A stretch of 64,000 nucleotides of DNA from an uncultured archaeon (GCA_964525635.1 CAZGJX010000007.1:1250-65249); one strand, 5' to 3'; positions 12,356-55,999 are shown, counted from the stretch's first letter. The notes: generated by a model from the sequence alone, not told the origin. Numbers and translations: made by a program.

Positions 12356-13663
12356 ATGCCAACTAAAACAGATTTTTATATTGGAGAAGCTCTAATTGGT
12401 GAAGCTCCTGATCTTGCTCACCTTGATGTTATGATAGGATCTAAATTTGGACCTGTAGGATATGCATTTTCACAAAGCCTTAGTCAACCTTCAATGGGCC
12501 ACGGAAGTCTTTTAGCTGTTATTAGACCAAATCTCTGTCCAAAACCTCAAACACTTATTATCCCTAAAGTAACTATAAGCAATATGGAACATGCAAATAA
12601 GATCTTTGGTCCTGCACAAGCTGCCGTTGCTAAAGCTGTAGCAGACTGTGTAGAGGAAGGAATAATTCCTATAAATAAAGTAGATGAATGGGTTGTCATT
12701 GTAAATGTTTTTATTCATCCTGAAGCCGATAATTATAGAAGAATCTATCGATATAATTATGGTGCTACTAAATTAGCCATCAGACGAGCTTTAGAAAATT
12801 ATCCTCCAATTAAGAAAATATTTTATGATAAAGATAGAGCTAAACATCCTGTAGCTGGAATAAAGGCCCCTAAATTATGGAGACCGCCCTATTTACAAAT
12901 AGCTCTTGATCATCCATCTAAAGAACATCAAGCTAAAGTTTTAAAAGATTTACCAAAAAGTGATAGAATTATATTAGAAGTCGGTACGCCCTTCCTTAAA
13001 AAGTATGGGATGGAAGCTATCACACAAATTCGCGAACTCGCCCCAAATAAATATATTGTTGCCGATCTTAAAACATTAGATGTGGGTAAGTTAGAAGTAG
13101 ATGATGCATTTAAAGCAACTGCTGATGGAGTTGTTTGCAGTGGATTAGCATCATCAGCATCAATAGATAAATTCCTCTTGGAAGCTGAAAGAATGGGAAT
13201 AGATGGAATTATTGATATGATGGAAGTTGTTGATCCTGTTGAAAAATTAAAAAATTTAAAACAAATACCCCGTGTTGTGATTCTTCATAGAGGAATAGAT
13301 GCTGAACAATCTACTACAATGTCCGGTTCGGATGCTGAACAAAAAAAGAAATGGGGGTTTGTTCCTAGAATTAAAGAACTGTATCATGATAAAAAGTTTG
13401 CAAGTGGAAGAGATAGGGTATTGGTTGCTGTTGCCGGAGGAATCTCCCCTGAGACAGCTAATGATGCAGTAGCAGTGGGAGCAGATATTCTAATAGTTGG
13501 CCGTTTTATTACCTCAAGTAAGGATATAAAGAATTCTACAAGAAGAATGATTAACTTACTACCTGGATTTTCTGATATTGATTTAAAGAGAATTCACGTA
13601 GAAGATGATGATGATAGTGCTTTAACTAAACAAATAAAAGAAGATAATTCTCATCCTTCTTAA
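12356..13663 (+). CDS. fae-hps: bifunctional formaldehyde-activating enzyme / 3-hexulose-6-phosphate synthase (Fae-Hps)
   Basis: N-terminal Fae pattern YIGEALIGEAPDLAHLDVMIGSKFGPVGYAF. C-terminal OMPDC-like HPS region (LQIALDHP, VADLKTLDVG, VAVAGGI, IVGRFIT). Confidence 0.8.
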   Translation: MPTKTDFYIGEALIGEAPDLAHLDVMIGSKFGPVGYAFSQSLSQPSMGHGSLLAVIRPNLCPKPQTLIIPKVTISNMEHANKIFGPAQAAVAKAVADCVEEGIIPINKVDEWVVIVNVFIHPEADNYRRIYRYNYGATKLAIRRALENYPPIKKIFYDKDRAKHPVAGIKAPKLWRPPYLQIALDHPSKEHQAKVLKDLPKSDRIILEVGTPFLKKYGMEAITQIRELAPNKYIVADLKTLDVGKLEVDDAFKATADGVVCSGLASSASIDKFLLEAERMGIDGIIDMMEVVDPVEKLKNLKQIPRVVILHRGIDAEQSTTMSGSDAEQKKKWGFVPRIKELYHDKKFASGRDRVLVAVAGGISPETANDAVAVGADILIVGRFITSSKDIKNSTRRMINLLPGFSDIDLKRIHVEDDDDSALTKQIKEDNSHPS

Positions 13664-20973: not shown

Positions 20974-23595
20974 ATGAATAATTCTAAGATTAAAAATTAT
21001 AAAAATTACAAATTTAAATTTTTTTTCGTATTAATAATTACCATCACACTTTTTACAATTCCCAATTTTATTAGCAATTTTATGGACTATAATTATAATA
21101 TTATTGAAAAGGAAAAAGAACCTCACATATTCATTCCTGATTCTCCTAAATCTTCTTATGTTTATAATGTAGATACAACTGATTATGCACTTGATGTTTT
21201 TGTAGAAGGGAATTATGCATATGTAGCAGCTTATGCATCGGGTTTAGCAGTTATTGATATCTCTGATCCAACTAATCCCGGAACTCCTGTGTATGAAGAT
21301 ACAAATGGTGAAGCAATGGGAATTTATGTAAGTGGAGATTATGCTTATGTCGCAGATTATAATGAAGGATTAGCTATTATTGATATCTCAGATCCAACCA
21401 ATCCTGGAGCTCCTATATATATGGATACAACTGGACATGCAGATAATGTAGTTGTGGAAGGGAATTACGCTTATATAGCGGGGAGTTCTTCGGGTCTAGT
21501 AATTATAGATATTTCAGATCCTACCAATCCAGGAACACCTATATATCGTGGTACTACTTCAAACGCTTATGATGTTTATATAGAGGGGAATTATGCATAT
21601 GTAGCAGCTTATGCATCGGGTTTAGCAGTTATTGATATCTCTGATCCAACCAATCCAGGGACTCCAGTTTATGAAGATTTGTTGGGAGATACAAATACTG
21701 TTGTTATATATGGAGATTATGCTTATTTGAGTGACCACATTCATGGTGTAGCAACAATTCATATTTCTGATCCAACCAATCCAGGAACTCCAATATACTC
21801 GGAAGGAGGAACACCAAATGATATTTATATAGATGGAAATTATAGATATACTATTAGTGATTTTATATTAGGTATCAGTGATTTATCCAAGCCTACTAAT
21901 CCAAAAGGTATTGGAGGCGAGGAAACCCAAGGAGATGGCTATGGGGTCTATGTAGATGGTAATTATGCATATGTGGCAGATGGTGTTGAAGGTTTAGCAA
22001 TTATCGATATATCTGAACAAATAGATCCAACAAATCCTATATATCAAGATACAAACGGACTTGCTTTTGGAGTTCAACTTAGTGGTTCTTATGCATATGT
22101 AGCAGATGGAGCATCAGGTTTAGCAGTTATTGATATCTCAGATCCAACCGATCCTGAAGCACCTAATTATGAAAATACTGCTGGAAATGCTCAAAATGTT
22201 TATATATGTGGTGATTATGCATATGTGGCAGATGGTATTGAAGGTTTAGCAGTTATGGATATCTCAAATCCAGGGAATCCATGGTCTCCTGTATATGAAG
22301 ATACAAACGGAACTGCATACGATGTTTATGTGAGTGGAGATTATGCATATGTTGCCGATGGAGAAGAAGGTTTAGCAGTTATTAATATCTCAGATCCAAC
22401 GAATCCCGGAACTCCTGTGTATGAAGATACAAATGGTGAAGCATGGGGAATTTATGTAAGTGGAGATTATGCTTATGTTGCAGATGCAATATCAGGATTA
22501 GCAGTTATTGATATCTCAGATCCAACGAATCCCGGAACTCCTATATATGAGGATACAACTGGAGAAGCATATGGAGTTTATATAGATGGAGATTATGCTT
22601 TTATTGCAGATGGTACTGCTGGATTAGCAGTTATTAATATCTCAGATCCAACGAATCCTGGAACTCCTGTATATGAAAATACTAATGGTGTGACATATAA
22701 TATTCATGTGGAAGGTAATTATGCCTATATGGCTGATGGAACATCTGGTTTGGTCATTATAAACATCTTAGATCCAAACAATCCAGGAAATCCTATATAT
22801 GAGGATACCACAGGAGAAGCATATGGGATTTTTATGAATGGAGATTATGCTTATGTTGCAGATGGACCTTCTGGATTAGCAGTTATTCAGGTTCGAAGGC
22901 GATTTGACATGCGTGATCCAAGCATATATTGGGAACCAAGTGATCAGTATTACGAATTTGGTTATTCTAATAAAACTATTTCATGGGAAGTAAGTGATGA
23001 AAATCCAAGCAATTATACAATTGAACTTCAAGGAACAGGTATTATTGCAGGTCCCACCCCATGGGAAGATGATGTTGAAGTTGTATATAATATTCTTGAA
23101 GGTCTTTCTATAGGTGATCATATATTTACTATTAATTTTAGTGATAATTATGGTCATTTTGATATTGATAGTTTTCATGTTTATGTTGATGAATCTGTAA
23201 TTCCGGTTATAACTGAAATACCGGATGATAGAACTGTTTATGAAGGACATTATTCTGGGGATTATTTTCATTGGGAGGCAACTGATGAACATCCAGAAAC
23301 ATATACAATTGAGCTTCAAGGTACAGGTATTGTAGCAGGACCTATTTCTTGGTATAGTGGTGAACATATTAGTTATCAGATTCCAACTGACCTTTCAGTA
23401 GGTAAATATAATTTTACAATTTACTTTACAGATGGAGGTGGAAATATTGTTTCTGATTCGGCTATTTTTACTGTTAAAAAAAATACTGGAGTATTAAACG
23501 TTGGAATTTCGCTTGAGTATTATTATTTTGTTTCTTTATTAATAGGAATAATAACAATAATGATATTGAAGAAACGAAAAATAATATTTCACTAA
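20974..23595 (+). CDS. LVIVD-repeat beta-propeller surface protein with two Ig-like C-terminal repeats and a C-terminal TM anchor
   Basis: About 14 tandem units of G(D/N)YAYVAD...GLAVIDISDPTNPG.P.YEDT.G.A..VY. Two paralogous ~95-aa modules (W.(V/A)(S/T)DE.P..YTIELQGTGI(I/V)AGP). N-terminal TM/signal, and C-terminal LLIGIITIMILKKRK. Confidence 0.75.
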   Translation: MNNSKIKNYKNYKFKFFFVLIITITLFTIPNFISNFMDYNYNIIEKEKEPHIFIPDSPKSSYVYNVDTTDYALDVFVEGNYAYVAAYASGLAVIDISDPTNPGTPVYEDTNGEAMGIYVSGDYAYVADYNEGLAIIDISDPTNPGAPIYMDTTGHADNVVVEGNYAYIAGSSSGLVIIDISDPTNPGTPIYRGTTSNAYDVYIEGNYAYVAAYASGLAVIDISDPTNPGTPVYEDLLGDTNTVVIYGDYAYLSDHIHGVATIHISDPTNPGTPIYSEGGTPNDIYIDGNYRYTISDFILGISDLSKPTNPKGIGGEETQGDGYGVYVDGNYAYVADGVEGLAIIDISEQIDPTNPIYQDTNGLAFGVQLSGSYAYVADGASGLAVIDISDPTDPEAPNYENTAGNAQNVYICGDYAYVADGIEGLAVMDISNPGNPWSPVYEDTNGTAYDVYVSGDYAYVADGEEGLAVINISDPTNPGTPVYEDTNGEAWGIYVSGDYAYVADAISGLAVIDISDPTNPGTPIYEDTTGEAYGVYIDGDYAFIADGTAGLAVINISDPTNPGTPVYENTNGVTYNIHVEGNYAYMADGTSGLVIINILDPNNPGNPIYEDTTGEAYGIFMNGDYAYVADGPSGLAVIQVRRRFDMRDPSIYWEPSDQYYEFGYSNKTISWEVSDENPSNYTIELQGTGIIAGPTPWEDDVEVVYNILEGLSIGDHIFTINFSDNYGHFDIDSFHVYVDESVIPVITEIPDDRTVYEGHYSGDYFHWEATDEHPETYTIELQGTGIVAGPISWYSGEHISYQIPTDLSVGKYNFTIYFTDGGGNIVSDSAIFTVKKNTGVLNVGISLEYYYFVSLLIGIITIMILKKRKIIFH
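21208..21272 (+). repeat. 65-nt perfect intragenic direct repeat, copy 1 (within the LVIVD gene)
   Basis: GGGAATTATGCATATGTAGCAGCTTATGCATCGGGTTTAGCAGTTATTGATATCTCTGATCCAAC is identical to 21586-21650, offset 378 nt (126 codons). Confidence 0.9.
21586..21650 (+). repeat. 65-nt perfect intragenic direct repeat, copy 2
   Basis: Identical to 21208-21272. Further near-identical ~90-nt units occur, e.g. 21264-21355 vs 22388-22479. Confidence 0.9.
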
Positions 23596-30042: not shown

Positions 30043-31992
30043 ATGAAAAGAAGTATAACAAATACAAATTTTGATATATCACACGCTAATTCTAATATAA
30101 ATTCTTCCATATCTTTTGGTCCTATAAAAAACTTGGAATCATATGTTAATTCAGATTGGTGGTGTAATATTTTCAATTCTAATTATTTAAAAACTGATGG
30201 AGATTTAGTTAATAATCTTGATATTACATCACAAGAAATTTCATATTTTACCAAGATTTTGGATCTTAAAAAAGAAGATAAAATACTTGATTTATGTTGT
30301 GGACAAGGTCGTCATGCCTTAGAATTAGCAAGAAGGGGATATAAAAATATCTATGGTTTAGATAAATCTTCTTATCTTATTCGTAAAGCTAGGCAATCAA
30401 CCCTTAAAGAAAATTTAAATATTCAGTTTAGAGAAGGAGATGCTCGCAAACTTATATACCCTACAGATAGTTTTGATTTAGTAATGATATTAGGAAACAG
30501 TTTTGGATATTTTGAATCTATTCAAGATGATCTAAAGATACTTGAGGATATTTCTCGAGTATTAAAACCTTGGGGAAGAATCTTCCTAGATTTAGCCGAT
30601 GGAGATTATTTGAAAAGAGAATTCCAGCCTCGTTCTTGGGAATGGATTGATAAGAAATTATTTGTATGTAGAGAAAGATGTTTATCATTAGATGATGAAC
30701 GTCTAATTTCGCGTGAAGTTATAACAGATGTAAATAAAGGCATTATTGCTGATCAGTTTTATGCTGAAAGACTTTATAATGAAAAAAAGATTACTTCTTT
30801 GTTATTAAAAGCAGGATTCTCTAAGGTTCTATTTCATGGCAAATTAATTTCCCAGTCTGAACGAAATCAAGATTTAGGAATGATGGAAAAAAGAATATTA
30901 GTCTCAGCAATAGTGAAAAAAGAATGGACTCCTGTAAAACCTAAAAAAAATCTCAAAAATATAGGTGTTATTTTGGGTGATCCAAACAAATCTGATATAG
31001 TCAAACCCAATAATGGATTTGATGATGATGATCTTTATACAATTGATCAACTTAAATCAAATTTAAAAAATCTTGATAGCTATAATTTTTATTTTTATAA
31101 TAATCATGATATACTCATTTGGGAATTAATAAAAAATAAAAAAAAGATAGATTATGTTTTCAATTTATGTGATGAAGGTTTTAATAATGATGCAAGGATG
31201 GAATTACACGTTCCAGCGATTTTAGAAATGTTGGGTATACCTTACAGTGGTAGTGGCCCTCAATGTCTTGCATTTTGTTATGATAAATCCTTAGTAAGGG
31301 GGATTGCAAAAGAAATGAATATCCCTATAGCTGATGGAATTTATATTACCCAAGAAGAAACCTCTTTTCAATTTCTTCCTTTTAATTTTCCTGTATTAGT
31401 AAAGCCTAATTTTGGAGATTCAAGCTTTGGTATAACTCAGAGAAGTTATGTAAGAAATGGTGAAGAATTAGTAGAAATAATATCAGATCTTAGAAAAGAA
31501 TTTGGTTATGATAAACCTATATTGATAGAAGAATTTTTAACAGGTCCAGATTTATCTTTAGGAATTATTGGAAATCCTTCAGATTCATATAAAGTTTTAC
31601 CTATTATAGAAGAAGATTATTCAGAATTACCTAATGGTTTACCCAAAATTTGTGGTTATGAAGCTAAATGGCTTCCTGAATCTCCCTATTGGAAACTTAA
31701 ATCGATCCCTTGTAATCTTCCTGAAGATAAAAAGACTTTCATTATTGAATGTTGTCTTAGATTATTTAAAAGATTAGAATGCCGAGACTATTGTAGATTT
31801 GATTGGAGACTAGATGAAGATAATAATCCTAAATTACTTGAAGTTAATCCAAATCCCGGATGGTGTTGGGATGGACATTTGGCAAAAATGGCGAATTTAG
31901 ATGGGATCTCTTATTCAGAAATGATTGAAGAAATATTGCATGCCACAGAAAATAGATTAGAAATTTTTTTAGATAACGCTCAAGATACTTAA
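30043..31992 (+). CDS. fusion protein: class I SAM-dependent methyltransferase (N) + D-Ala-D-Ala-ligase-like ATP-grasp (C)
   Basis: MTase motif I ILDLCCGQGRHALELARRG and post-I/II GDARKL, VMILGNSF. The C-terminal half has Ddl-like pre-ATP-grasp and ATP-grasp patterns (VFNLCDEG, LEMLGIPYSGSG, DKSLVRGIAKEMNIP, VLVKPNFGDSS, LLEVNPNPG). Confidence 0.7.
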   Translation: MKRSITNTNFDISHANSNINSSISFGPIKNLESYVNSDWWCNIFNSNYLKTDGDLVNNLDITSQEISYFTKILDLKKEDKILDLCCGQGRHALELARRGYKNIYGLDKSSYLIRKARQSTLKENLNIQFREGDARKLIYPTDSFDLVMILGNSFGYFESIQDDLKILEDISRVLKPWGRIFLDLADGDYLKREFQPRSWEWIDKKLFVCRERCLSLDDERLISREVITDVNKGIIADQFYAERLYNEKKITSLLLKAGFSKVLFHGKLISQSERNQDLGMMEKRILVSAIVKKEWTPVKPKKNLKNIGVILGDPNKSDIVKPNNGFDDDDLYTIDQLKSNLKNLDSYNFYFYNNHDILIWELIKNKKKIDYVFNLCDEGFNNDARMELHVPAILEMLGIPYSGSGPQCLAFCYDKSLVRGIAKEMNIPIADGIYITQEETSFQFLPFNFPVLVKPNFGDSSFGITQRSYVRNGEELVEIISDLRKEFGYDKPILIEEFLTGPDLSLGIIGNPSDSYKVLPIIEEDYSELPNGLPKICGYEAKWLPESPYWKLKSIPCNLPEDKKTFIIECCLRLFKRLECRDYCRFDWRLDEDNNPKLLEVNPNPGWCWDGHLAKMANLDGISYSEMIEEILHATENRLEIFLDNAQDT

Positions 31993-51986: not shown

Positions 51987-52412
51987 TTATTCTTTTTGAA
52001 CTAGAAATGTGAATAATGCAGTTAAAGGACTCGCAATAACTCCACCGTAAAAGCCTGGTCCAAACCACCAATCAGTTGGATTATCAATTGCTAATTTTAA
52101 CTGAAAGAAAATCCCCCCTAATGCACATATAGTAAATGCAGTTAAAGAAAAATATAGTACAAGTTTTTCCATTATTTCGGGTAGCTTTCCTGGAGCTATA
52201 ATTTGTATTATATATATTGCTGAACAATAAAACAATAATAATGCTACTGGTACTATTAATACACCATAAAATGTATCTGCACCTGCATAATACCAATAAT
52301 CAAAAGGAGGTTCAATCCATTCTCCAAATGGAGTTACTACTAGTAATACTCCTCCAACTAGGCTTAAAATAGCAATTAAGATATAAAAAATCCTTTTCAT
52401 TTGATCATCCAT
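51987..52412 (-). CDS. 4-TM membrane protein, tandem paralog A
   Basis: Aligns along its whole length with the product of 52503-52943 (LLV.TPFG.W, LLLF.C.A..IIQ..AP.KLPEI, WW.G.GFYG). Confidence 0.45.
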   Translation of the reverse strand: MDDQMKRIFYILIAILSLVGGVLLVVTPFGEWIEPPFDYWYYAGADTFYGVLIVPVALLLFYCSAIYIIQIIAPGKLPEIMEKLVLYFSLTAFTICALGGIFFQLKLAIDNPTDWWFGPGFYGGVIASPLTALFTFLVQKE

Positions 52413-52502: not shown

Positions 52503-52943
52503 TTATATATTCCATAATTCTTTTTTTTGAAAAATAAAAACTAATATTGTAGTTGCTGAGCTACTAATAATACAACCATAAAAGCCTGCTCCAAGCCACC
52601 ACATAAGGGGTTTATCAATTACTTGTAATATTTCAAAACTTATTGTACCTAAGATGCATACAATAAAACAAGTTAATGAGAAAGATATTATAAGATTTTT
52701 AGTTATTTCGGGTAGCTTCTCTGGTGCTACAAATTGTATTATAAATACTGCTGCACAAAAAAATAATAATAATGCTCCAGGTATTATCAATAAACCATAA
52801 ATAGTTCCTGCATTTATAGAATGATAATTAGAAGAAGGACCAGTGACCCATGCCCCAAATGGAGTAGCAATAAGTAATACCGCCCCGATAAGATTTATAG
52901 CAGCAAGAATACCATATATAACTTTTTTTTGTTGATTTTCCAT
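52503..52943 (-). CDS. 4-TM membrane protein, tandem paralog B
   Basis: Paralog of 51987-52412. Confidence 0.45.
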   Translation of the reverse strand: MENQQKKVIYGILAAINLIGAVLLIATPFGAWVTGPSSNYHSINAGTIYGLLIIPGALLLFFCAAVFIIQFVAPEKLPEITKNLIISFSLTCFIVCILGTISFEILQVIDKPLMWWLGAGFYGCIISSSATTILVFIFQKKELWNI

Positions 52944-53146
52944 CTAAAACAATTTTATTTTATTAGAATTTTACAATAGGTTCATCTCTATTGCATATAA
53001 ACCTTACCAAATACATTTAATCCAAATCAATAAAAAAATCTTATAATTTTTTCTCCTCAATAATTAATAAATTATCCTTAAGATTCATCTGTCTACTATT
53101 TATTATCCTAACATTTTTGCGTATTAAAAAATATACTATATTAAGT

Positions 53147-55480
53147 ATGAAACAAAGAATCATTAATGTCTTAGTTGCAGGACATAGTCAACATGGGAAA
53201 TCAAGTCTTGTAAGTGTGATTGTGGGTAAATTTCCAGACAATCTTGATTATGAAATAAACCATGGTACAACAGTCTCATTAAAAGTAATCCAATTTTATT
53301 TAAAAGAAAAAAATATATATCTCAATTTTATTGATAGTCCTGGTCATGCTGATCTTAAAGGAGGAATTGCTCTTGGTTTAGAATTCGCTGATCTATTAGT
53401 GTTAGTAATATCAGGAAATGAAGGATTTCAGGCACGTACTTATTGGTTATATGAGAAAGCAATAGAGAAAAATCTTCCTATAATTATTGCTGCAACTAAA
53501 ATGGATTTACGTAATGCACAAATTGAGAGGATAACAAAAGAACTTCAGAAATTAGAGAGTAAAGCATATCCTATTATTAAAACATCTGCAAAAAAAAAAT
53601 TTGGAATTGAAGAACTCATAGACAAAATTCAAATATATCTAAAACATAGAAAAAAATTAGAATCAGACTTAAAATTCATTATTTTAGGATATGATAAGAA
53701 AAAAGGAATTGGAGAATTGTTAACTATAGGTATTCGCTCAGGAAAGATTCAAGCTAATAACTATATTTCAGATAAAATCCGTATAAAAAATATATATTCT
53801 CTCGATGGAGAATTAATTAATGAAGCTTTTGAAGGGGATATTATTAAAATTTCACTAAATATGTATGTTAAATTTGAATTAGGGACAATATATAATAAAG
53901 GAAAGTTTTTATCAGGAAAAATTGTCAATATTTTATCTGAAATTCAACCAAGAAAAGAATTTTATATTCATATTAATGATCCAATTAAATTTAAACATGG
54001 GGTTGAAATTCTAGAAAACCTAAAAAAAGTTATATCCTCATTTGATTTTTATACAGAGAAAAAAGATATTATTATTCAAGTTTTAGGAGATGTACAATTT
54101 GATTTTATTAAAGAAAATTTGGAAAAAATAATAGATTTTAAGATAACTGGTTCTAAGATAAAAGGAATTATAACAATTAATAAAAAAAGTCGAGCTAGAT
54201 ATAACTCTGCTGTAGTAAAAATAGCACCGAGGTTTAAAAAAAAACTAACTATAACAAGAAATGGCAAGATAAATAAGCCAATTTTTGATATATTAGGAGC
54301 TTCCGTAGCTTATGAAGCTTTTCATCTTGATGGACTACATGTAGATATAAAGTCAGGAAAAAATGAGGATGATATTGCACAAGCAATTGCAAAAGCTATT
54401 GAGAAAGTTAAATTAATAAAAATTATTCCACAACAAGATGTTATTGTAAAAGTGGAAAATATTCATGAGATTTTTTCCATAATCGAAAAATACAATATTG
54501 AAGTTTTATATCATGCAGATACTAATATCTTTTTTCTGCAAATAAAAAATGAGCAATTTGAATCATTTTTTAACTCTTTAATGAAAGCTTCTGATGGAAG
54601 GGCCGAAATTAGTCTTTTTAATTTTGAACAAACTGAAAGAATCCTTTCAGTTGATCCTGGAACAAGACATTTTGGATTTTGCCTAATTGAAAAATCAGAA
54701 CTTCCCTCATTATGGTATATGAATTTAAAAAGTGCTATTGACAATTCAAAAACTAGAAAAATGGCTAAAATTCAATTAGAAGAGGAGTTGGATATATTCC
54801 TTGAGGGAGAAAAAGAAATGATTAATAAAATCTTTATCGGAAATGGTCCAGGTTCTGATTTTATAATTGATTTCTTGATTGAATATTTTAACATTCCATG
54901 TGAAAATCAGGAATGTATTATTACAGATTATCCTCAAGCAAAAAAAGATGATATTATTAAGAATACAACTACAATAAAATCACATATTAAACCTCCCGAA
55001 ATATATCTTGTCGACGAGTTTAAGACAACAAAAGAAGCAATTTATCATTTACAAAGGGGAGAAATAGTGAGTGAAGTAAAAAGTAAAGGTTTTGTAGATC
55101 ATGCTATTGCTGCATTACTTATTGCAAAAAGAGGGATTAAAGGAGAAATTATAGAACTTAGACATAAACCATTAAAACAATTATATGATTATGTGGTAGA
55201 AAATTATTCTGGTTCTTATTCTTTCTCTAGTATTCATAATATTAATAGCTTATTAGATATAAAGTCAGGAATGTATTTAAAAATTAAAGATAGTACAAAA
55301 TTAGATTCCAACTTGAACAATGGTGATATTGTTGTTTTTACCGGATTTGGAACATCATATAATGATCTACATGCTAATACTCTTTCGGGAAATAAAATTA
55401 TTATTAAATTTCAAGGAAATATAAAAGTTAAAAAGAATTTTTTCAATATATTTATTCCTGTAAAACAAAGAACTGATTAA
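53147..55480 (+). CDS. translational-GTPase-like protein fused to a YqgF/RuvX-type RNase H-fold domain
   Basis: G1 AGHSQHGKSS, G3 DSPGH, G4 TKMD, G5 SAK, and a domain-II-like barrel. EF-G-like remnants LGDVQFDFIKENLEK and SLMKASDGRAEI. From about 54640: LSVDPGTRHFGFCLIE, IFIGNGPGSD, LVDEFKTTKEA, VDHAIAALLIAKRG. ATG 53147 is preferred over the ORF-track TTG 53117. Confidence 0.6.
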   Translation: MKQRIINVLVAGHSQHGKSSLVSVIVGKFPDNLDYEINHGTTVSLKVIQFYLKEKNIYLNFIDSPGHADLKGGIALGLEFADLLVLVISGNEGFQARTYWLYEKAIEKNLPIIIAATKMDLRNAQIERITKELQKLESKAYPIIKTSAKKKFGIEELIDKIQIYLKHRKKLESDLKFIILGYDKKKGIGELLTIGIRSGKIQANNYISDKIRIKNIYSLDGELINEAFEGDIIKISLNMYVKFELGTIYNKGKFLSGKIVNILSEIQPRKEFYIHINDPIKFKHGVEILENLKKVISSFDFYTEKKDIIIQVLGDVQFDFIKENLEKIIDFKITGSKIKGIITINKKSRARYNSAVVKIAPRFKKKLTITRNGKINKPIFDILGASVAYEAFHLDGLHVDIKSGKNEDDIAQAIAKAIEKVKLIKIIPQQDVIVKVENIHEIFSIIEKYNIEVLYHADTNIFFLQIKNEQFESFFNSLMKASDGRAEISLFNFEQTERILSVDPGTRHFGFCLIEKSELPSLWYMNLKSAIDNSKTRKMAKIQLEEELDIFLEGEKEMINKIFIGNGPGSDFIIDFLIEYFNIPCENQECIITDYPQAKKDDIIKNTTTIKSHIKPPEIYLVDEFKTTKEAIYHLQRGEIVSEVKSKGFVDHAIAALLIAKRGIKGEIIELRHKPLKQLYDYVVENYSGSYSFSSIHNINSLLDIKSGMYLKIKDSTKLDSNLNNGDIVVFTGFGTSYNDLHANTLSGNKIIIKFQGNIKVKKNFFNIFIPVKQRTD

Positions 55481-55618: not shown

Positions 55619-55999
55619 TTGAGTGAATTTGAAGAAAAGGTAATAAAATTACTTGAAACAATTAATGGAAAACTAGATAAATTATTAGGATCACCAACTA
55701 GTACCCCAGCAAAGGCTCCAGAGATTCCTGTAGCACCATCAGCTGCGTCTGAAGCAAAAAGTGATGCATCTGATCCCTCTGGACTAAAACCTTCTGAACT
55801 CATAGAAAAACAAAAAGAAGAAGATCGGACAAAAGTTGCCCCTCCAATAGAGGGAAGAAGAGTATGTCCTGAATGCGGAGGGACTGACTTTGCTGAAAGA
55901 GAAGACCGCTCTCAACCACCAATACATCAAATGGGTGGAATTAAAATATATAAGAAAAAGATAACATGTAAGAAATGCAGCTATGAATTTCCAGTATAA
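55619..55999 (+). CDS. small protein: N-terminal helix, Pro/Ala/Ser-rich linker, C-terminal zinc ribbon
   Basis: CPECGGTDF...CKKCSYEF. TTG start 6 nt after GAGGAG. Locally higher GC content. Confidence 0.45.
   Translation: MSEFEEKVIKLLETINGKLDKLLGSPTSTPAKAPEIPVAPSAASEAKSDASDPSGLKPSELIEKQKEEDRTKVAPPIEGRRVCPECGGTDFAEREDRSQPPIHQMGGIKIYKKKITCKKCSYEFPV

Follow-up and report, generated by a model that had tools for sequence, protein, structure and literature searches.

A stretch of 64,000 nucleotides from an uncultured archaeon (GCA_964525635.1, CAZGJX010000007.1:1250-65249; called the window in what follows) carries at 53147..55480 (+) a gene for a 777-residue protein in which a translational GTPase (trGTPase) is fused to a nuclease domain of the YqgF/RuvX type. 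This covalent fusion had been proposed in a previous reading made from the sequence alone; we found it supported, with a GTPase scaffold more complete than that reading had claimed. The protein belongs to a family that is conserved, uncharacterised and restricted to few archaeal lineages, and database annotation gives all members as ‘GTP-binding protein’, with one fragment named ‘Holliday junction resolvase RuvX’. In line with the earlier statement that the architecture is not characterised, literature searches yielded no paper describing the present GTPase-YqgF family and no characterised function for it.

The mechanically called open reading frame (ORF) at 53117..55480 (+) is intact and comprises 787 amino acids counted from its TTG. 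Because the G+C content of the window, ~26%, makes stop codons frequent, an ORF of such length is not a chance product, and the ~94 Lokiarchaeal homologue clusters at 58–77% identity to the window protein mark it as a real gene. The N-termini of the homologues align with M11 of the ORF (MKQRIINVL), so translation probably starts at the ATG at 53147, giving 777 residues; the ORF first called from the sequence was thus correct in being intact, whereas its TTG start gives way to this likelier ATG. Throughout, residue numbers are those of the TTG-based ORF, numbers in the full-length structural model are the ORF numbers minus 10, and invariance counts refer to 86 full-length homologues unless stated otherwise. 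Members of the family occur in Lokiarchaeia/Promethearchaeota, where ~33 of the scanned GTDB species representatives carry one, in one metagenome-assembled genome (MAG) labelled Hermodarchaeota, in Asgardarchaeia, in MAGs labelled Odinarchaeota and in Methanopyrus. Overall identity between the Lokiarchaeal and the divergent clades is ~33%.

The protein begins with a translation-factor G domain (53147..53641, +; residues 11-175), modelled with predicted local distance difference test (pLDDT) values of 81-94 and matched by Pfam GTP_EFTU (PF00009) over residues 14-175 at E = 1.5e-27 and 96.8 bits, against a cut-off of 26.5. Its motifs are as follows: firstly, the P-loop (G1) is AGHSQHGKSS, in which G22, H23, G27, K28 and S29 occur without exception; secondly, T52 is the switch-I threonine of G2; thirdly, G3 is DSPGH, with D73, G76 and H77, the last at the position of the catalytic histidine; fourthly, G4 is TKMD, with K128 and D130; and lastly, G5 is SAK, with T156 and S157. 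All of these residues are unchanged in 86 of 86 homologues, and the complete G domain claimed earlier on the strength of the AGHSQHGKSS, DSPGH, TKMD and SAK motifs is therefore corroborated. The motif set of the trGTPase superfamily, G1-G5 plus a histidine after DxxG (PGH), is present in the window protein; in trGTPases it is the sarcin-ricin loop that activates this histidine. Across the family the P-loop takes the form AGH(S/A/V)(Q/D)HGKSS, where the EF-G consensus is AHxDxGKTT, and the G domain is just ~165 residues long, without the G′ insertion. Directly after it stands a domain II beta-barrel (53654..53914, +; residues 180-266), all-beta at model residues 170-256 with pLDDT 84-93 and covered by Foldseek alignments to EF-G-family factors, so that the domain-II-like barrel suspected from the sequence is also found by modelling. 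Pfam EF-G_D2 matched weakly in two aligned members, and a precomputed match exists for Methanopyrus members.

An AlphaFold2 model of the full-length protein, built from an 87-sequence alignment (pLDDT 79.7; predicted template modelling score 0.70) and with strands and helices assigned by DSSP, resolves into the G domain (model residues 1-165), the all-beta barrel of domain II (170-256), a beta-alpha-beta-beta-alpha-beta module corresponding to domain III (268-340), a beta3-alpha-beta-alpha module corresponding to domain IV (341-421), a second beta-alpha-beta-beta-alpha-beta module corresponding to domain V (423-492), an alpha/beta nuclease domain (495-668) and a small beta domain forming the tail (669-777). 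When this model was compared with the PDB by Foldseek, the top 50 matches were solely five-domain EF-G-family factors, aligned over 600-780 columns; the best was aEF2 of Methanoperedens (6u43; E = 2.7e-26, 678 columns), and LepA, EF-G, mtEFG1, EF-G2, TetM and Snu114 were further top matches. The predicted scaffold is thus a complete five-domain one, G-II-III-IV-V, of the EF-G/aEF2/LepA kind.

Predicted domain III (53948..54166, +; residues 278-350) is a beta-alpha-beta-beta-alpha-beta module by DSSP and contains LGDVQFDFIKENLE. A profile of the middle region matched domain III of TetM/TetO at E = 0.003, with EF2 and RF3 matched weakly, and Pfam RF3_C also matched the window protein weakly. The domain IV-like module (54167..54409, +; residues 351-431) bears a conserved SGKNEDD loop and was assigned purely by its beta3-alpha-beta-alpha fold, from DSSP and the long Foldseek alignments to EF2 and EF-G. 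The domain V-like module, of ferredoxin type (54413..54622, +; residues 433-502; assigned by DSSP and Foldseek), contains FFNSLMKASDGRAEI. An hhalign comparison of the middle region with a LepA alignment built from the hits gave a probability of just 3.7%; within it, the domain III and domain V motifs are in register, the domain V motif with FFDNLKSVSSGFASLD of LepA, and the FFNSLMKxSxGxA form of that motif with FFDNLKSVSSGFA of LepA. When an Asgard aEF2 fragment and a TetM-like protein were the targets, a hidden Markov model (HMM) of the middle region aligned domain III alone, and most Smith-Waterman scores of domains IV and V stayed inside the shuffled-control range; one score slightly above the controls was not a true match, since it aligned to the G-domain region of the target. 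Pfam EFG_III, EFG_IV and EFG_C did not match the window protein at E ≤ 1. The sequence-only reading had described EF-G/EF-2 ‘remnants’ in this region; the EF-G likeness holds, but in the model and the Foldseek alignments the region comprises complete predicted domains III-V rather than remnants.

Behind domain V lies a YqgF/RuvX-type domain of RNase H fold (54629..55150, +; residues 505-678). A separate model of residues 503-787 (pLDDT 81) has the RNase H-like topology b1-b2-b3-a1-b4-a2-b5-a3, with strands at its residues 6-11, 16-23 and 29-34, a helix at 42-60, a strand at 69-73, a helix at 78-88, a strand at 126-130 and helices at 135-145 and 159-172. Foldseek matched this model to the YqgF-like domain of Tex (3bzc; 1.8e-4) and to RuvX (7ess; 1.4e-3), and also to the YqgF-like domain of Spt6 (9hvq_M), RuvC of T. 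thermophilus and TsaB; in a viral structure library it matched RuvC-like resolvases. Pfam RuvX (PF03652) matches 14 of 15 aligned members of the family, at best with 1e-08. Three of the four members tested from the divergent clade exceed its gathering cut-off (38.8, 35.4 and 29.8 bits, over profile positions 2-128 of 134), and a Methanopyrus member reaches 24.2 bits. The domain of the window protein would count as a RuvX member by transitivity, through full-length homology (E ~1e-115 to 1e-124). Pfam RuvC (PF02075) gave weak partial matches in 3 of the 15. An RNase H/YqgF fold in the C-terminal part, as expected from the sequence, is therefore found by modelling, by Foldseek and by Pfam RuvX in relatives.

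Three acidic residues form the putative active site: D513 (54653..54655, +; motif VDPG) at the end of beta1, E634 (55016..55018, +; VDEF) at the C-terminal end of beta5, and D661 (55097..55099, +; VDHAIAAL) at the start of the last core helix, which begins at residue 159 of the C-terminal model, that is, at ORF residue 661. All three are unchanged both in the 86-sequence set and in a 57-sequence alignment that includes the Methanopyrus clade, and H662, right after D661, is likewise invariant. The RuvX motifs that had been picked out by eye are all there and in order, and D513, D633/E634 (nucleotides 55013-55018) and D661 fall exactly where that reading had put them; its expectation of conserved acids holds for D513, E634 and D661 but not for D633, which is replaced by N in some homologues. 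The segment following beta4 is GNGPG (IFIGNGPG) and contains no acid. In RuvC, which is an obligate dimer, the catalytic glutamate stands at the end of beta4 and the last helix bears two acidic or histidine residues. In YqgF, by contrast, the conserved glutamate closes beta5 instead of beta4, and alpha3 bears a single acid (PMC9601230). As judged from the model, the family has exactly the triad arrangement of YqgF, D513, E634 and D661; an identity as RuvC was rejected, as there is no acid after beta4 and the glutamate follows beta5 instead. For the D. radiodurans protein (DrYqgF), a Mn-dependent ribonuclease (RNase), mutation of the equivalent residues D22, E106 and D122 impairs or abolishes RNase activity, and the E. 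coli protein (EcYqgF) processes pre-16S rRNA only in 70S ribosomes (PMC9601230).

Both predicted catalytic parts are also the best conserved ones: between the Lokiarchaeal and the divergent clades, identity is 48% in the G domain and 42% in the RuvX core, compared to 22–31% in the other domains, a pattern expected if both are catalytic. A variable insert between alpha2 and beta5 (54929..54985, +; IPCENxxC...; pLDDT below 50) is specific to Lokiarchaeia, being missing in the divergent clade and shorter in several Lokiarchaeal members.

The protein ends in a basic small beta domain of ~110 residues (55151..55477, +; residues 679-787), modelled with pLDDT ~87-94 over most of its length as five to six strands plus helices. 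Its isoelectric point is 9.5-10 and its net charge +5 to +10 in six members. The tail had no Pfam or PDB sequence match, and in both Foldseek searches with the C-terminal model the matches came chiefly from the RNase H-like part. The beta-rich tail of ~100 residues that had been noted before is thus real, with confidently modelled strands.

The C-terminal module was found only as part of this fusion. An exhaustive HMM search with it against 1.84 billion protein representatives returned 13 proteins, all of them family members or fragments, and the module always stood at the C-terminus of a protein of ~735-777 residues; a word-index profile search returned only fragments of the family. Two candidates for a free-standing module were rejected, one being the second half of a split gene and the other being cut by a contig end. 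In the former (L042:2114-4352), a 455-residue GTPase ORF and a 283-residue ORF for RuvX domain plus tail lie 20 bp apart, an arrangement that may reflect a frameshift, a pseudogene or a true split of the gene close to where domain V meets the nuclease domain. We conclude that the fusion is obligate. Across Lokiarchaeia the gene is single-copy, syntenic and vertically conserved. A canonical aEF2 gene with Pfam EFG_III, EFG_IV and EFG_C (L002:16208-18232, −) lies ~6 kb from the Asgardarchaeia member, a proximity that is probably coincidental; because this canonical aEF2 coexists on the same contig with a member of the family, we rejected the identity of the family as the organism's aEF2 and regard it as an extra factor, not the translocase.

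Gene neighbourhoods were compared at nine loci. In Lokiarchaeia, a cluster of a GlpA-like oxidoreductase and DUF1667, sometimes with a DSPc phosphatase, stands upstream of the gene, and a Zn-ribbon gene, then an ATP-binding cassette (ABC) transporter pair and a radical S-adenosylmethionine (SAM) gene, downstream. At these nine loci no operon is conserved beyond this Lokiarchaeal synteny, and nothing of this synteny is kept beside the Asgardarchaeia or Methanopyrus genes; we treated the gene as monocistronic. The Zn-ribbon gene of the window (55619..55999, +) encodes a small protein in which a variable linker rich in Pro, Ala and Ser joins a conserved N-terminal helix to a C-terminal CxxC...CxxC Zn-ribbon, and which is 53–73% identical to neighbours in four other Lokiarchaeal loci; at a fifth, a similar Zn-ribbon ORF follows the GTPase gene. 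It had been described as lying immediately downstream on the same strand, and the ORF is indeed there, but this placement is not a conserved one: across Lokiarchaeal loci the gene is usually just downstream on the same strand, once inverted and once 2.3 kb away. The Zn-ribbon protein had no significant family match, and the gene is absent beside the Asgardarchaeia and Methanopyrus members. A functional link to the GTPase-nuclease is uncertain. Two Lokiarchaeal loci have a Pfam DSPc phosphatase gene (dual-specificity phosphatase; L006:4523-4978 and L042:1615-2076) that stops 23-38 bp before the GTPase gene; two others have it farther upstream, and no match was found among the ORFs scanned in the window region. 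Neither the Zn-ribbon gene nor the phosphatase was accepted as a firm partner, because their placement and orientation change from locus to locus and neither is present outside Lokiarchaeia.

Directly upstream of the fusion gene, the window has two genes for small hydrophobic, apparently multi-pass membrane proteins (51987-52412, −, and 52503-52943, −) that are similar in sequence and probably paralogues; in the closest relatives (L004 and L005) a heliorhodopsin gene takes their place. The product of ORF 52503-52943 matched KwaA of PADLOC weakly (E = 0.0017). Farther away, the window encodes a 689-residue protein without Pfam match at E ≤ 0.001 (309-2378, +); a formaldehyde-activating enzyme (Fae) joined to an OMP-decarboxylase/HUMPS-family domain, a fusion of the Fae-Hps type (12356-13663, +); an 873-residue protein with 12 LVIVD repeats (Pfam E = 4.9e-127) and a C-terminal immunoglobulin-like domain (20974-23595, +); and a 649-residue protein with an N-terminal SAM-methyltransferase and a C-terminal ATP-grasp domain of the D-Ala-D-Ala-ligase type (30043-31992, +). 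An Rfam scan of the whole window gave no hits.

With moderate confidence, we read this domain content as that of a single-chain, ribosome-directed nuclease, a ribosome-activated GTPase that would place its own RNase on the ribosome. Within this proposal we infer that the protein binds the ribosome, that it cuts RNA and not DNA, that cutting is coupled to GTP, and which RNA is cut. Binding to the ribosome or a late pre-ribosome is suggested by the relatives of the scaffold, nearly all of which act on the ribosome (Snu114 is the exception), and by the manner in which trGTPases dock, their domains II-V occupying the factor site and the A site; in LepA and BipA, extra C-terminal domains after domain V lie in the intersubunit space. 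The EF-G-type GTPase (domains G, II, III, IV and V) would act as the targeting and timing module, and the YqgF/RuvX-type domain together with the basic beta domain as the effector. With GTP bound, the protein would occupy the factor-binding site on an archaeal ribosome, or on a late pre-ribosome, while the A site is vacant, and domains II-V would dock in the manner of EF-G, LepA and TetM. The C-terminal module, positioned after domain V, would then be held against ribosome-bound RNA, which its metal-dependent Asp/Glu/Asp site would cut, and GTP hydrolysis via the conserved DxPGH histidine would free the factor. A precursor or defective rRNA end would be the most likely substrate and our first choice, because the trimming of pre-16S rRNA by YqgF in E. 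coli is confined to 70S ribosomes; the mRNA of a stalled ribosome would come second.

A narrower version of this proposal is a tentative one, which we hold to be possible but short of probable: that the family constitutes a previously unrecognised class of translation factor, in which an EF-G-shaped GTPase brings an active YqgF RNase to the factor site and A site for GTP-checked cleavage of ribosome-bound RNA, in rRNA end maturation or no-go decay. In the first case, the factor could couple the maturation of rRNA ends to proofreading, doing in a single archaeal polypeptide what Nob1 does when licensed by eIF5B or what YqgF does when it trims in 70S ribosomes; in the second, it could supply the endonuclease that archaeal no-go decay is missing.

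Several observations weigh against the ribosome-directed nuclease. On the nuclease side, the Foldseek E-values are modest (1e-4 to 1e-3), with ASKHA-type TsaB on top. The window protein itself matches Pfam RuvX weakly, at E = 0.011 over its full length and 0.0013 with the C-terminal part, and its score of 19.5 bits is below the cut-off of 29.2 and covers profile positions 79-128 alone. PDB sequence-profile searches with the C-terminal alignment and with the RuvX domains of the divergent clade never reached RuvX; their best matches, none of them significant, were RuvC (1.3 and 0.14), glucokinase (0.021) and Pelota (0.11). YqgF has just three carboxylates, and whether it is active, and on RNA or on Holliday junctions, is a matter of dispute even for the bacterial proteins (PMC9601230). 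On the GTPase side, domains IV and V are supported by predicted structure, the sequence comparisons not being significant. The EF-G-type P-loop and the G′ insertion are both missing from the window protein, and the best partial NCBIfam matches are scattered over TetM-type, LepA, SelB, IF-2 and EF-G models; its P-loop is GHxxHGKS, a form we take to be IF2/SelB/EF-Tu-like and not of EF-G type. Subfamily assignment is ambiguous because of this P-loop and these scattered matches, and we describe the protein as EF-G-like in architecture and assign it to no named trGTPase subfamily. A core role in archaea is made less likely by how narrow and patchy the distribution is, and at the loci examined no conserved neighbour indicates ribosome biogenesis or ribosome rescue.

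Of the other explanations, the one that survives best is that the RuvX-like domain binds RNA or serves as a scaffold without being catalytic, so that the protein would be an accessory factor of the LepA/BipA/EF-G2 type, acting in assembly, stress or back-translocation and cleaving nothing. Tex (3bzc) and Spt6 (9hvq_M), whose YqgF-like domains are commonly regarded as non-catalytic, gave some of the best structural matches. LepA, a top Foldseek match of the whole model, and BipA also have an extra C-terminal domain after domain V, and the set of carboxylates in YqgF sites is incomplete (PMC9601230). The Asp/Glu/Asp triad and H662 are, however, invariant between clades at ~33% identity, and only the G domain is better conserved than the nuclease core, a pattern more to be expected of an active site than of a binding surface. 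We consider a non-catalytic module unlikely, if by no means negligible.

We regard it as improbable that the protein is a DNA enzyme, a GTP-regulated nuclease of Holliday junctions or branched DNA that works off the ribosome and reuses the EF-G-like body as a mechanical or regulatory module, as Snu114 does in the spliceosome. Some bacterial RuvX proteins resolve Holliday junctions, the Foldseek matches include junction-bound RuvC and viral resolvases, the resolvase name attached to one family fragment points the same way, and Snu114 is an EF2-like protein that left the ribosome. Yet all ribosome-binding elements of a trGTPase are kept here, including the catalytic histidine, and the glutamate follows beta5 as in YqgF, not beta4 as in RuvC. 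Junction resolution, moreover, requires a dimer, which we think fits poorly with a domain set within a large fusion, and no DNA-repair genes lie nearby in the loci examined. Marginally less probable still is a role in defence or as a toxin-like effector, in which rRNA, tRNA or mRNA would be cut on the ribosome to stop translation during infection or stress: a toxin aimed at ribosomes could well have this architecture, and the distribution over Asgard archaea plus Methanopyrus is patchy, but the GTPase-nuclease had no match in PADLOC-DB at E ≤ 0.01, its context is a stable, syntenic, housekeeping one across Lokiarchaeia with no immunity-like partner and no mobile-element neighbours, and its presence in ~33 species-level Lokiarchaeal genomes at 58–77% identity looks like vertical inheritance.

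The main value of the ribosome-directed nuclease as an explanation is that GTP-gated RNA cleavage on the ribosome is a testable hypothesis. Although few protein families have been studied as thoroughly as the trGTPases, we know of no characterised one with a built-in nuclease; coupling of the two conserved catalytic centres would, if real, make the protein the first case of ribosomal GTP hydrolysis directly gating RNA cleavage by the same polypeptide. The protein is a candidate for two archaeal steps that we believe to be open, namely the nuclease that makes certain rRNA ends and the nuclease that cuts mRNA on stalled ribosomes; it is not a general archaeal solution to either, because its distribution is narrow. 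It is a near-standard component of Lokiarchaeia, a cultivable Asgard lineage related to eukaryotes, and the thermophilic versions from Methanopyrus and Asgardarchaeia should suit biochemistry and cryo-electron microscopy.

Compared to known systems, the GTPase resembles EF-G, aEF2, LepA (EF4) and TetM in its G motifs and catalytic histidine, its domain II barrel and its predicted domains III-IV-V in the same order. It differs from them in lacking the G′ insertion, in its GHxxHGKS P-loop, in a small domain IV (~80 residues) and in adding a C-terminal nuclease-plus-beta module of ~280 residues, which none of those factors has. With bacterial YqgF/RuvX (PF03652), the nuclease domain shares the RNase H-like fold, the triad of an aspartate on beta1, a glutamate after beta5 and an aspartate on alpha3, and the VDE(R/F)xTTxEA and DHAxAAL motifs. 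Whereas YqgF is a free-standing bacterial protein of ~140 residues, the domain of this family is archaeal and always stands behind an EF-G-like body, and it is set apart by the invariant histidine beside the last aspartate, by GxGxG after beta4 and by the variable Lokiarchaeal insert.

Other RNases that cleave rRNA or mRNA in ribosome context, some of them checked by a GTPase, are Nob1 with eIF5B, Rae1/YacP and RelE. EcYqgF on pre-16S rRNA in the 70S ribosome is alike in cleaving rRNA only in ribosome context (PMC9601230). In EcYqgF, Nob1/eIF5B, Rae1/YacP and RelE, nuclease and GTPase are separate or there is no GTPase; here, both are in one polypeptide. Asgard aEF-2p (Narrowe et al., 2018; PMC6143161) is similarly an extra EF2-family-like GTPase in Asgard archaea, presumed not to be a translocase, but it is a recognisable EF-2 homologue without a nuclease domain. 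The EF-2 HMM survey in that study, at a threshold of 1e-24, reported no further paralogues (Narrowe et al., 2018; PMC6143161); as it did not capture the present family, we rejected an identity with aEF-2p.

The nearest precedent in design is bacterial. TetM-like-NYN_YacP fusion proteins have been noted in Clostridia (Matelska et al., 2017; PMC5499597), and a bacterial example among our G-domain hits (P0113, 828 residues) is a TetM/EF-G-like GTPase with Pfam EFG_IV, EFG_C and a C-terminal NYN_YacP (Rae1-like) RNase. Like the archaeal family, the Clostridia proteins join an EF-G-paralogue GTPase to a C-terminal RNase and are uncharacterised; unlike it, they are bacterial, their GTPase is clearly TetM-like and their RNase has a PIN-like NYN fold rather than an RNase H-like one. 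The two fusions arose independently, and the bacterial one suggests that a ‘GTPase-delivered RNase’ may be a recurrent and unstudied design.

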